DNA of 64,000 bases from the NCBI RefSeq assembly GCF_054482595.1, contig NZ_CM137008.1. One strand, written 5' to 3'. Made by a program: the position numbers and the translations under genes. Positions 61,500 through 64,000 of the stretch are shown here, one piece after another. Under the pieces are notes generated by a model, which saw only the letters and a list, made by a program, of their open reading frames with translations, was not told where the DNA came from and ran no database searches. Position 1 is the stretch's first letter, and every line of letters starts with the position of its first letter.

Positions 61500-62078
61500 C
61501 TAAATTTCAGTATACCTTTTCTTCGCTGTAATAAAGTCGTCCGGAGTATCAATATCTAAAATTATTTCTGCATTTTCTATTTCGACGGAATAATGATCTC
61601 CCATAAGGAGTGCCTGACGCATATTGGTGACATTGGGTCGCTGGAATGCCTGCATCAAGCATGGTTTTGACACTAAAATCGGATGGCCGGGGATGCCATT
61701 ATGGAGTGGCAGTATTGCGCCATCATTTCGTAACGACCAGATTTTTCTAAAAATATCAATGGTGAGGGTTGGCATGTCACCGTGGGTGAGAAAACAATGT
61801 TCTGTTTGCACTGCGGGTACTGCGGCCTTGACTGATGTTAGTAAACCCTGGGCATAATCTGGGTTGTGAATAATAGTGATATTACTCTGGTTCGCATAAC
61901 GTTCGTGCAGTTCATTACCACGATAGCCGGTGACTAAAATAATTCGGCTACAAAACTGCAACGCATTTTTGATACTTGTATCAAGAATTGTTCCCTGTTG
62001 CCAGGGTAACATCATTTTCCATTGCCCCATTCTTGATGATAATCCGGCAGCGGTAATTATACAGTCGATGGCTGACAT
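61500..62078 (-). CDS. ygfJ: molybdenum cofactor cytidylyltransferase (MocA)
   Basis: ORF track 192 aa, MSAIDCIITAAGLSSRMG nucleotidyltransferase N-terminus. Confidence 0.87.
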   Translation of the reverse strand: MSAIDCIITAAGLSSRMGQWKMMLPWQQGTILDTSIKNALQFCSRIILVTGYRGNELHERYANQSNITIIHNPDYAQGLLTSVKAAVPAVQTEHCFLTHGDMPTLTIDIFRKIWSLRNDGAILPLHNGIPGHPILVSKPCLMQAFQRPNVTNMRQALLMGDHYSVEIENAEIILDIDTPDDFITAKKRYTEI

Positions 62079-62180
62079 AGTGGCTCCATTATTTATAGGG
62101 GCTAATGACGCCTGATAATTGCGTTACTTCCTGATGGATTAAGTTGGGGGTAATTTATCCCAGAGAGGTCATAAAGACTC

Positions 62181-62951
62181 GTGAAAAGTATAGTTGACCC
62201 ATCGGCATTATTCATTGATTTAGGTGCGCAGAAACGTCCCACTGTGATTTCTGTTGTTGGTGCTGGGGGGAAAACCAGCTTGCTTTTTTGGCTGGCAGAA
62301 CTGCTCCAGACTCGCGGCAGGCGTGTGTTAATCACTACGACGACACATATGTTTATGCCAAAGTCACACTGGCCCGTGGTTTTCTGTCGTGATCCCGCCA
62401 TGCTTCCTCATGCGTCTCTTACATCCCCCATTTCATTTTGTTTTCACAGCTGGAAAGCGAACCAGGGAAAAGTGCAGGGATTTACGCCAGAAGCGATTGA
62501 TGCACTGGTGCAACGACCAGAGTGTGACGTAATTCTCATTGAAGCAGATGGCTCGCGTGGAATGCCGTTAAAAGCGCCTGATGAGCACGAACCTTGCATA
62601 CCCAAAAGCAGTTGCTGCGTGATTGCTGTGATGGGAGGACATACTTTGGGCGCGAAAGTGAGCACAGAAAATGTCCATCGCTGGTCGCAGTTTGCTGATA
62701 TTACCGGGTTAACACCTGATGCAACCTTGCAACTGAGCGATCTCGTTGCGCTGGTTCGCCACCCTCAGGGGGCGTTTAAAAACGTACCGCAAGGTTGTCG
62801 GCGAGTCTGGTTCATTAACCGTTTTTCTCAATGTGAGAATGCGATTGCACAAAGCGAGCTCCTTCAACCGCTGCAACAACATGACGTAGAGGCAATCTGG
62901 CTGGGCGATATACAAGAACATCCTGCAATCGCGCGCAGATTTGTGAATTAG
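62181..62951 (+). CDS. yqeC: putative selenium-dependent hydroxylase accessory protein YqeC
   Basis: ORF track 256 aa, P-loop-like VVGAGGKTS. Confidence 0.85.
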   Translation: MKSIVDPSALFIDLGAQKRPTVISVVGAGGKTSLLFWLAELLQTRGRRVLITTTTHMFMPKSHWPVVFCRDPAMLPHASLTSPISFCFHSWKANQGKVQGFTPEAIDALVQRPECDVILIEADGSRGMPLKAPDEHEPCIPKSSCCVIAVMGGHTLGAKVSTENVHRWSQFADITGLTPDATLQLSDLVALVRHPQGAFKNVPQGCRRVWFINRFSQCENAIAQSELLQPLQQHDVEAIWLGDIQEHPAIARRFVN

Positions 62952-62998
62952 CGGCCCGGGTATTCCGGGTTACTGAAAGGATATCCATTGAGGTTGGT

Positions 62999-64000
62999 AT
63001 GAATATTTTCACAGAGGCTGCAAAACTCGAAGAGCAAAATTGTCCGTTTGCGATGGCGCAAATTGTTGATAGCCGAGGCTCGACTCCCCGCCATTCTGCA
63101 CAAATGTTAGTGCGCGCCGATGGTTCTATCGTCGGTACAATTGGTGGCGGAATGGTTGAGCGGAAGGTGATTGAAGAGTCGCTTCAGGCATTGCAGGAAC
63201 GTAAGCCGCGATTATTCCATGGACGTATGGCTCGTAACGGTGCGGATGCTGTCGGGTCAGATTGTGGAGGTGCAATGTCAGTATTTATCAGCGTCCATGG
63301 TATGCGTCCACGTCTGGTGTTGATTGGCGCGGGGCATGTCAACCGGGCGATAGCCCAGAGTGCGGCGCTATTAGGATTTGATATTGCCGTTGCCGATATT
63401 TATCGCGAAAGCCTCAATCCTGAACTATTCCCACCATCAACCACGCTTCTCCATGCTGAGTCGTTTGGTGCGGCAGTGGAAGCACTGGATATTCGCCCTG
63501 ATAATTTTGTCCTGATTGCCACGAATAATCAGGATCGTGAAGCCCTCGACAAACTCATTGAACAGCCCATTGCATGGTTGGGGTTGCTGGCAAGTCGTCG
63601 CAAGGTTCAGCTTTTCCTGCGTCAATTGCGTGAGAAAGGCGTGGCTGAAGAACATATTGCCCGTTTACATGCGCCCGTTGGTTACAACATAGGTGCGGAA
63701 ACGCCGCAGGAGATCGCCATCAGCGTGCTGGCAGAAATATTACAGGTGAAAAATAACGCGCCGGGTGGGCTGATGATGAAACCTTCTCATCCTTCCGGAC
63801 ACCAGCTGGTGGTGATTCGCGGGGCGGGAGATATCGCCAGTGGTGTGGCGCTACGTCTGTATCATGCGGGTTTTAAAGTGATCATGCTGGAAGTGGAAAA
63901 ACCGACAGTGATTCGTTGTACCGTGGCGTTTGCCCAGGCCGTGTTCGATGGCGAAATGACGGTCGAAGGCGTCACTGCTCGCCTGGCAACCAGCTCTGCG
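62999..64000 (+). CDS. yqeB: XdhC/CoxI-like molybdo-hydroxylase maturation protein YqeB (5' part; continues beyond window)
   Basis: Open frame from ATG 62999 to window end (334 codons, no stop): MNIFTEAAKLEEQNCPFAMAQIVDSRGSTPRHSAQMLVRADGS. Confidence 0.85.
   Translation, partial: MNIFTEAAKLEEQNCPFAMAQIVDSRGSTPRHSAQMLVRADGSIVGTIGGGMVERKVIEESLQALQERKPRLFHGRMARNGADAVGSDCGGAMSVFISVHGMRPRLVLIGAGHVNRAIAQSAALLGFDIAVADIYRESLNPELFPPSTTLLHAESFGAAVEALDIRPDNFVLIATNNQDREALDKLIEQPIAWLGLLASRRKVQLFLRQLREKGVAEEHIARLHAPVGYNIGAETPQEIAISVLAEILQVKNNAPGGLMMKPSHPSGHQLVVIRGAGDIASGVALRLYHAGFKVIMLEVEKPTVIRCTVAFAQAVFDGEMTVEGVTARLATSSA

Follow-up and report, generated by a model that had tools for sequence, protein, structure and literature searches.

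The mocA, yqeC and yqeB genes of Escherichia coli as a probable cofactor-finishing line for xanthine-oxidase-family molybdoenzymes

[quoted passage not shown] The genes, their names and their proposed roles are already present in RefSeq and, from 2008 onwards, in the literature, and the finding of the locus is in itself nothing new: the interpretation carried by the initial annotation of this DNA is essentially that of Haft & Self (2008), joined to the proof of MocA function (Neumann 2009), and is already known. What is added here is the fold of YqeC, the fold of the C-terminal domain of YqeB, and the network of gene fusions in which YqeC takes part. These folds and this network argue for studying YqeC in combination with MocA and not as a carrier of selenium.

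Of the ways in which organisms use selenium, its loading onto the molybdenum cofactor is described in the field as the least understood (PMC11448449). In addition, the client pathway, in which gut bacteria degrade uric acid anaerobically, bears on gout and on the engineering of probiotics (10.1101/2025.04.24.650524; 10.1101/2025.05.19.654654).

Gene content and genomic context

The open reading frame (ORF) list and a reading of the sequence place three genes between positions 61500 and 64000 of the window. The first, mocA (61500-62078, minus strand), is a 192-aa ORF with an ATG start and a GGAG ribosome-binding site, separated by a divergent intergenic spacer of 102 bp (62079-62180) from yqeC (62181-62951, plus strand), a 256-aa ORF whose GTG start is backed by an N-terminal alignment of 43 homologues. 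After a gap of 47 bp, yqeB opens with an ATG on the plus strand (62999-64000) and runs off the window end, as had been noted from the sequence, its frame being still open at codon 334 of 541. The genes ygfK-ssnA-ygfM-xdhD lie on the same strand as mocA, directly downstream of it after a 321-bp gap.

Megablast located a fully identical copy (100%) of the region 61100-64000 in many E. coli chromosomes, where it is annotated as mocA, yqeC, yqeB and ygfK. The stretch was found in 5157 of 5426 complete genomes, and K-12 MG1655 is 99.7% identical to it, the YqeB fragment being identical to K-12 YqeB at the protein level. Gene coordinates and names are correct as first given and chance is no issue, the identities first given to ygfJ, yqeC and yqeB being borne out by the ORFs, the family models and the identical annotated genomes. 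The accessory roles attributed to them, in the assembly of a cytosine-dinucleotide molybdenum cofactor possibly carrying selenium, likewise agree with the present tests and with the literature, namely with the biochemistry of MocA and with the proposal of Haft & Self (2008) that YqeB, YqeC and YgfJ of this E. coli region are accessories of a selenium-dependent molybdenum hydroxylase (PMC2276186).

MocA passes TIGR03310 (NCBIfam; 214.3 bits against an equivalog cutoff of 186.45, aa 5-184 of 192) and matches PF12804 (Pfam; E 2e-28), and RefSeq annotates the gene at 61500-62078 as mocA, molybdenum cofactor cytidylyltransferase. Experiments have established the E. coli protein as the CTP:Mo-MPT cytidylyltransferase, whose product is the cytosine dinucleotide cofactor (Neumann 2009, as cited in PMC2997495 and PMC10845959). 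Solved structures retrieved for MocA by PDB sequence search were distant MobA/MocA-related ones only. The GC content of mocA (~0.40-0.44) is below that of the neighbouring genes (0.51-0.55).

The initial annotation had further suggested a self-contained enzyme-plus-maturation island at this locus. The island itself is supported by the HMM-checked occurrence of the same modules beside Xdh-type hydroxylases in other genera: the E. coli layout is also present in Aeromonas, the Moorella cassette adjoins a TIGR03311 selenium-dependent XDH, yqeC-mocA-xdhC-yqeB are contiguous in Thermovenabulum, and Vallitalea carries xdhC-NTPase-yqeC-mocA-yqeB beside homologues of xdhD, ygfK and ssnA. It is not self-contained, however, because MocA also supplies PaoABC, which is encoded elsewhere (PMC2997495, PMC10845959), and because selD does not appear among the genes annotated in the corresponding stretch of the matching genome.

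Transcriptional organisation

The genes yqeC and yqeB are no simple operon, yqeB being driven from its own sigma-54 promoter inside yqeC. This intragenic promoter, TGAGCACGAACCTTGCA (62582-62598, plus strand), is located within the YqeC codons D-E-H-E-P-C-I and corresponds exactly to site IS34 of Bonocora et al. 2015, which was validated by ChIP-qPCR, RT-qPCR and Western blot and whose mutation renders YqeB undetectable (PMC4591121). The sigma-54 promoter of ygfK-ssnA-ygfM-xdhD, GTGGTGCGATTGTTGCT (61251-61267, minus strand), lies in the 321-bp gap downstream of mocA and exactly matches site OS31 of Bonocora et al. 2015 (PMC4591121); the hydroxylase operon thus has its own promoter, separate from mocA. 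Read-through from mocA into ygfK may also occur, since no intrinsic terminator was detected between the two genes, the terminator-like sites of the scan being no more frequent than in shuffled controls.

In the mocA/yqeC spacer, a sigma-70-like match (TTTATA-16-GATAAT; 62092-62119, plus strand) is predicted by consensus match only, and no inverted repeat was found. Rfam returned no Moco riboswitch or other RNA element in 60800-64000, even at E<=1. The palindrome TTATCATTATGATAA was considered as a shared activator site of the sigma-54 promoters of the cluster; it occurs once only in the window and the 27-kb neighbouring locus, and this role is thus unsupported.

YqeC fold and association with MocA

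The product of yqeC, named 'selenium cofactor biosynthesis protein YqeC' and described as a P-loop NTPase, passes TIGR03172 (NCBIfam; 241.2 bits against a cutoff of 73.05) and PF19842 (Pfam; 145 bits against 27.6), and a PDB sequence search returned no relative with a solved structure. The model of YqeC is that of a divergent P-loop NTPase of the SIMIBI class and shows the fold, the Walker A and the Walker B/G3-type motif of this class. The Walker A/G1 motif GAGGKTS (aa 27-33; 62259-62279, plus strand) is invariant in 44 homologues, and its residues G27 and G29-G30-K31-T32 are invariant across Proteobacteria and Firmicutes too, while K131, E137-P138-x-I-P141 and H166-R167 represent invariant motifs of YqeC's own. 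The GTP-specificity motif (N/T)KxD is absent from YqeC, N213 alone being invariant at the end of strand 207-213, with no K/D after it.

As a candidate for a selenium (perselenide) carrier, Cys139 of the YqeC 'HEPC' motif was rejected as a family-wide feature: it is invariant in 44 mostly proteobacterial YqeC, whereas Moorella, Thermovenabulum and Vallitalea have Val at this position. The overlapping sigma-54 promoter may account in part for the conservation of Cys139 in Proteobacteria.

With the Moorella fusion as query, both the YqeC and the MocA halves were recovered in 115 of the 120 best clusters, and the best 150 representatives at 50% identity included 9 YqeC-MocA and 6 MocA-YqeC fusions. 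At least one fusion of YqeC to TIGR03309 (P0497) was also found, and the XdhC::TIGR03309 fusion is E. coli YqeB itself. These recurrent fusions suggest that YqeC is a MobB-like partner of MocA within a four-module cofactor assembly line.

A plausible alternative, which we hold to be somewhat short of probable, is that YqeC is no selenium factor at all and would instead be a dedicated NTPase partner of MocA, analogous to MobB, in the synthesis or transfer of the cytosine dinucleotide cofactor, all selenium chemistry taking place in the TIGR03309 domain of YqeB. The fusions bear on this alternative in both directions: YqeC and MocA are joined in both orders and in many lineages, whereas the YqeC::TIGR03309 fusion counts against it. 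In the loci of three distant YqeC::MocA fusions, genes for XdhC, TIGR03309 or a hydroxylase were absent up to a distance of 10 kb, because of which YqeC may not be selenium-specific; in phylogenetic profiling against the selenium marker, however, YqeC ranks second, just after YqeB (PMC2276186). Genetics favours the alternative, the deletion of yqeC in C. difficile having no phenotype whereas that of yqeB phenocopies selD on xanthine and urate (PMC11448449), and MobB, which some genomes carry fused to MobA, is a SIMIBI NTPase that can also be dispensed with (PMC4633490). The kinship with MobB itself is less favourable: YqeC has no sequence similarity to MobB (Pfam, E<=10) and falls outside its family, and MobB is absent among the listed fold matches of YqeC, so that the analogy is drawn from the fusions and the NTPase class only.

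YqeB architecture and the selenium step

The first description of YqeB as XdhC-like applies to its N-terminal half; the C-terminal half, located mostly beyond the window, is instead a TIGR03309 domain. The XdhC-like module (63032-63739, plus strand) comprises XdhC_CoxI (aa 12-74) and the XdhC_C Rossmann domain (aa 106-247), the region aa 12-247 passing both XdhC Pfams (PF02625, 73.5 bits against 24.3; PF13478, 119.3 against 29.7), and a PDB sequence search matched YqeB to the XdhC-family structures 2we7 and 3on5. Its TIGR02964 score of 112 bits is under the equivalog cutoff of 161.6, and YqeB is thus XdhC-like, not an XdhC orthologue. The TIGR03309 (EF2563/YqeB-type) domain starts at aa 271 with a GAGD Rossmann motif (63809-64000, plus strand); the fragment within the window covers just positions 1-62 of the 256 in the profile and therefore reaches 90.5 bits, short of the cutoff of 220. 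Extension beyond the window, as proposed by the initial annotation, gave the full gene of 541 codons in an identical genome (13900-15525 of the matching E. coli genome stretch), and the full-length protein reaches 417 bits against the same cutoff.

For this C-terminal domain too, a PDB sequence search returned no relative with a solved structure. In its model (pLDDT 93.9), a Rossmann-like unit is combined with a barrel-sandwich unit, which is biotinyl-like and lacks the carrier lysine, and with a long helix. Residues R39, K104, N106, E135, R138, R168, R211 and K225 of TIGR03309 are invariant. The possibility that it is a duplicate of the XdhC Rossmann domain was rejected, hhalign giving a probability of 2% and an alignment limited to the first beta-alpha-beta unit.

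The client side of the pathway has recently been documented: E. coli XdhD-YgfM is a urate (uric acid) reductase with isoxanthine (2,8-dioxopurine) as its product (10.1101/2025.05.19.654654), and YgfK is a flavin-dependent isoxanthine reductase (10.1101/2025.05.19.654654; 10.1101/2025.04.24.650524). XdhD of E. coli is inferred to contain selenium. Full-text literature searches returned no E. coli experiment tying yqeB, yqeC or selD to XdhD/XdhABC activity. It is unlikely, in our view, that the E. coli module matures the ordinary sulfido form of the cytosine dinucleotide cofactor for XdhD and XdhABC, with selenium restricted to clostridial-type relatives. Such a restriction would agree with the state of the literature, in which no molybdenum hydroxylase of E. 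coli has a measured selenium content and a labile-selenium enzyme is, according to Haft & Self, not yet observed in this species (PMC2276186), in which the E. coli XdhD study has 'Se' once and the word 'selenium' nowhere (10.1101/2025.05.19.654654), and in which a 2010 review sees YqeB simply as a possible XdhC-like chaperone shared by XdhD and XdhABC (PMC2997495). E. coli YqeB carries, however, the full TIGR03309 domain, whose family is restricted to selD-positive genomes (PMC2276186). Gut bacteria also argue for selenium: the homologous urate reductase of C. sporogenes, DOPDH, requires SelD, being inactive once purified from a selD mutant, and the gut strains with the uric-acid cluster all had YqeB, YqeC and SelD (10.1101/2025.04.24.650524). 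As for the older reading of these genes as accessories of a selenate-reducing or detoxifying enzyme, which survives in the RefSeq product name 'putative selenate reductase subunit YgfK' and for which Haft & Self (PMC2276186) cite Bebien et al. 2002, it is highly improbable. Most of its ground has been removed by the reconstitution of the urate pathway in vitro, YgfK being now an isoxanthine reductase and XdhD a urate reductase (10.1101/2025.05.19.654654; 10.1101/2025.04.24.650524), and Haft & Self argued that homologues of the selenate reductase subunits do not track selD whereas TIGR03309 does (PMC2276186).

Proposed maturation pathway

The cofactor-finishing line that we favour would operate in four steps. 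In the first, shown by others for this protein, MocA uses CTP to transfer CMP onto Mo-molybdopterin, yielding molybdopterin cytosine dinucleotide (MCD). In the second, YqeC, as a divergent SIMIBI-class NTPase, would physically partner both MocA and the C-terminal domain of YqeB, probably acting, in the manner of MobB with MobA, as an adaptor or hand-over factor driven by nucleotide, helpful and not strictly required. In the third step, by extension from the XdhC family, YqeB would bind the finished MCD through its N-terminal XdhC module and insert it into the apo-hydroxylase. The fourth step, placed before this insertion, would see the TIGR03309 module use SelD-made selenophosphate to provide the labile selenium ligand on molybdenum, as suggested by the co-occurrence with selD and by the genetics of C. 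difficile and C. sporogenes; the module would work as a Rossmann-like nucleotide/phosphate-binding unit associated with a biotinyl-like barrel lacking the carrier lysine. Expression of the line is modular, mocA and yqeC diverging from a short spacer, yqeB being transcribed from the sigma-54 promoter within yqeC and the hydroxylase operon from a sigma-54 promoter of its own.

Going further, and only tentatively, MocA, YqeC, the XdhC module and the TIGR03309 module could constitute one physical assembly line, in which YqeC, as the MobB analogue of the cytosine dinucleotide branch, would be the nucleotide-driven factor coupling the transfer of newly cytidylylated cofactor from MocA to YqeB and the selenium step would belong wholly to the TIGR03309 Rossmann-plus-barrel domain. 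We regard this extension as possible and rather doubtful; if true, it would explain why yqeC is dispensable yet tightly linked, and would for the first time set the 'third' selenium-utilisation trait in a concrete mechanistic frame.

Comparison with known systems

Regarding the selenium-cofactor trait markers of Haft & Self 2008 and Zhang et al. 2008, YqeB (TIGR03309, EF2563 family) and YqeC (TIGR03172), the window genes are the founding E. coli members. Within the MocA/PucB family (TIGR03310; MobA-like NTP_transf_3 fold), the window gene is E. coli mocA itself and displays no difference, its sole oddity being a GC content below that of its neighbours. The Moco-binding insertion chaperones XdhC, PaoD and PucA share both XdhC Pfam domains with the N-terminal half of YqeB, but YqeB carries an additional 270-aa TIGR03309 domain and, unlike theirs, its gene is not co-transcribed with a structural hydroxylase gene (PMC2997495). 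The C-terminal barrel of YqeB matches the fold of the biotinyl/lipoyl carrier (barrel-sandwich hybrid) domains, whereas the YqeB family consensus has no conserved lysine at the tip of the beta-hairpin; the barrel is thus not a swinging-arm carrier, and is more likely a lid or docking element.

With the SIMIBI chaperone NTPases UreG, HypB, CooC and MeaB/MMAA, YqeC has weak structural similarity (TM 0.3-0.45), and it differs from NTPases of this type in lacking both the NKxD base-specificity motif and a family-wide metal-binding cysteine, Cys139 being Val in Firmicutes. MobB, the GTP-binding adaptor of MobA, resembles YqeC in being a P-loop NTPase associated with a MobA-like nucleotidyltransferase. 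Furthermore, families exist in which MobB is fused to MobA, as YqeC is to MocA, and both proteins are genetically dispensable (PMC4633490; PMC11448449), MobB being not essential for MGD synthesis (PMC4633490).

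Gene layout and identities

The three genes that the initial annotation had read from the sequence alone are confirmed at their positions by the ORF list, the raw sequence, megablast and family models. From the ORF list and raw sequence, mocA (ygfJ; 192 aa) occupies 61500-62078 on the minus strand and yqeC (256 aa) 62181-62951 on the plus strand, with a 102-bp spacer separating these divergent genes; an N-terminal alignment of 43 homologues supports the GTG start of yqeC. Also on the plus strand, yqeB starts with an ATG at 62999 and, as noticed initially, runs off the window end, cut at codon 334 of 541. 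The hydroxylase operon ygfK-ssnA-ygfM-xdhD lies 3' of mocA on the same strand, after 321 bp.

By megablast, many E. coli chromosomes match window 61100-64000 with 100% identity and have it annotated as mocA, yqeC, yqeB and ygfK, and at least 80% of it occurs in 5157 of the 5426 complete E. coli genomes. For 253 of the 5426 genomes there is no match to this 2.9-kb stretch, and one E. coli genome carries a plasmid copy. Identity to K-12 MG1655 is 99.7% over the stretch and complete for the YqeB fragment as protein. Curated family models assigned MocA to TIGR03310 (214 bits, cutoff 186) and YqeC to TIGR03172 (241 bits, cutoff 73) and PF19842, and resolved the YqeB fragment into XdhC_CoxI and XdhC_C followed by positions 1-62 of the 256 of TIGR03309, to which the complete YqeB belongs (417 bits, cutoff 220). 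The description of YqeB as XdhC-like holds for its N-terminal half only, which scores below the XdhC equivalog cutoff. GC content is 0.40-0.44 in mocA and its downstream gap (61000-62200) versus 0.51-0.55 in ygfK, yqeC and yqeB, and mocA may therefore have a different evolutionary origin.

Promoters and candidate regulatory sites

Reading yqeC-yqeB as a simple operon is contradicted by the sigma-54 promoter mapped inside yqeC, whose mutation left the YqeB protein undetectable (Bonocora et al. 2015, PMC4591121). This 17-mer matches the window at 62582-62598. A second published sigma-54 site (PMC4591121) matches at 61251-61267 on the minus strand and belongs to the hydroxylase operon, which is thus not simply co-transcribed with mocA; a terminator scan found none after mocA. 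The yqeB promoter overlaps the YqeC codons of the conserved motif D-E-H-E-P-C-I (gaT GAG CAC GAA CCT TGC Ata), its -12 GC being part of the Cys codon. The synonymous choices are kept in Aeromonas (GCACGAACCTTGCA) and not in one high-GC Comamonadaceae genome. Because Cys139 is kept only in Proteobacteria, the demands of the promoter and of the protein may be intertwined here.

A perfect CRP consensus, TGTGAATGAACTCACA, lies at 61330-61345, and the ygfK sigma-54 promoter follows 63-94 bp downstream of it. No other perfect match occurs in the whole 64 kb, where 0.03 would be expected; this candidate site would fit the glucose repression of urate degradation (2025 preprint, 10.1101/2025.05.19.654654). 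CRP-like sites with one mismatch occur at 62523-62538 (~45 bp upstream of the intragenic promoter), at 62998-63013 over the yqeB start codon, and in the ygeW-ygeV spacer of the matching E. coli genome stretch (L001 22027-22042), giving, with the perfect one, 4 sites in 27 kb against 0.77 expected, a count reached in 1 of 100 shuffles. In addition, a near-perfect palindrome, TCCTTATCAT-T-ATGATAAAGA, stands at 61432-61452. It follows the stop codon of mocA by ~50 bp, and the ygfK sigma-54 promoter comes ~170-200 bp downstream of it, a spacing typical of activator sites; the palindrome is found only once in the window and the neighbouring 27 kb.

Proposed accessory roles and selenium dependence

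Through phylogenetic profiling against selD, Haft & Self (2008, PMC2276186) singled out a 23-gene E. coli region, which is the present one, and proposed that YqeB (TIGR03309), YqeC (TIGR03172) and YgfJ (TIGR03310) assist selenium-dependent molybdenum hydroxylases in an accessory role. YgfJ is MocA, the CTP:Mo-molybdopterin cytidylyltransferase providing the cytosine dinucleotide cofactor (Neumann 2009, as cited in PMC2997495 and PMC10845959), including that of PaoABC (PMC2997495, PMC10845959), and YqeB has been viewed as a possible XdhC-like chaperone common to XdhD and XdhABC (Leimkühler 2010 review, PMC2997495). In C. difficile, a strain deleted for yqeB behaves like a selD mutant on xanthine and urate, and yqeC deletion gives no phenotype (Johnstone & Self 2024, PMC11448449). 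The accessory roles suggested for molybdopterin cytosine dinucleotide hydroxylases are supported, matching both established annotation and the PMC2276186 hypothesis. Since Haft & Self 2008, the MocA biochemistry and later papers came before, this interpretation repeats what was already annotated and hypothesised in print. The observation is correct, its interpretation is supported, and both were already known. As for a self-contained enzyme and maturation island, adjacency to xdhD-ygfK stands; self-containment does not, as MocA also supplies PaoABC and selD is absent from the annotated genes of the matching E. coli stretch.

Gene context, with assignments checked using our own HMMs, revealed a four-module cassette conserved beside Xdh-type hydroxylases across genomes: yqeC-mocA-xdhC-yqeB in Thermovenabulum, xdhC-NTPase-yqeC-mocA-yqeB adjoining xdhD, ygfK and ssnA homologues in Vallitalea, the layout of E. 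coli in Aeromonas, and a cassette adjoining a TIGR03311 selenium-dependent XDH in Moorella. The Vallitalea locus includes an additional small NTPase_1 (PF03266) gene between xdhC and yqeC (L006 8156-8632), and a separate HAD hydrolase gene directly precedes xdhC in Moorella (L002 6034-6702). No gene for XdhC, TIGR03309 or a hydroxylase lies within 10 kb of three distant YqeC::MocA fusions, so YqeC may contribute generally to making the cytosine dinucleotide and not to selenium use, an alternative we regard as plausible, though less likely than not. It is unlikely that E. coli XdhD uses sulfur in place of selenium, although Haft & Self (PMC2276186) noted that no labile-selenium enzyme had been observed in E. 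coli. Our literature search found no E. coli study relating yqeB, yqeC or selD to XdhD. The C. sporogenes XdhD homologue purified from a selD mutant was inactive (2025 preprint, 10.1101/2025.04.24.650524). The older selenate-reductase reading is highly improbable and essentially superseded. XdhD-YgfM converts urate to isoxanthine (2,8-dioxopurine), which YgfK further reduces (10.1101/2025.05.19.654654). The RefSeq name of ygfK (58080-61178), "putative selenate reductase subunit YgfK", is outdated, as two 2025 preprints characterise YgfK as an isoxanthine (2,8-dioxopurine) reductase (10.1101/2025.04.24.650524, 10.1101/2025.05.19.654654).

Predicted folds

As neither YqeC nor the YqeB C-terminal domain has a sequence-related solved structure, alignments and confident AlphaFold2 models (pLDDT 91.2 and 93.9, respectively) were used. 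YqeC is predicted to be a divergent SIMIBI-class P-loop NTPase; its model has weak Foldseek matches to SRP GTPases, MeaB and HypB. GxGGKT, ExDG, K131, E137-P138-x-I-P141, H166-R167 and N213 are invariant family-wide. Cys139 of YqeC was rejected as a family-wide selenium carrier, being Val in Firmicutes. The YqeB C-terminal domain is modelled as a Rossmann-like unit, a biotinyl/lipoyl-like barrel and a long helix, with no solved structure matching it entirely; unlike biotinyl/lipoyl carrier domains, its barrel has no conserved carrier lysine in the alignment.

Gene fusions and a probable YqeC-MocA partnership

The fusion pattern is the most informative result on mechanism. In Moorella, YqeC and MocA form a single 455-aa protein, and both halves are present in 115 of the 120 best 90%-identity clusters retrieved with it. 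An exhaustive profile search yielded 5829 YqeC clusters, whose best 150 representatives include 9 YqeC-MocA, 6 MocA-YqeC and 1 YqeC::TIGR03309 fusions (the latter P0497); E. coli YqeB is itself an XdhC::TIGR03309 fusion. That the two are joined in either order points to a direct YqeC-MocA partnership. P0286 and six proteins like it (733-773 aa) are triple fusions of YqeC, MocA and a HAD-IIA phosphatase, in that order, and these, with the Moorella HAD gene, suggest that a phosphatase may be part of the cofactor line in some lineages. Two further proteins are probably gene-call or assembly artefacts: P0374 (394 aa), a YqeC representative that is matched over two stretches and carries additional sequence, and the metagenomic P0001 (422 aa), 100% identical in the YqeB C-terminal domain alignment yet matching the TetR_N Pfam model. 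The window finding is not itself novel; the fold assignments and fusion network add modestly to the picture of the mechanism.

A YqeC-MocA partnership fits the missing yqeC phenotype. MobB and MobA are likewise fused in some genomes, and MobB is dispensable (PMC4633490), paralleling the absent C. difficile yqeC phenotype. MobB matches YqeC neither in sequence nor among the folds listed, and the likeness would be one of context.
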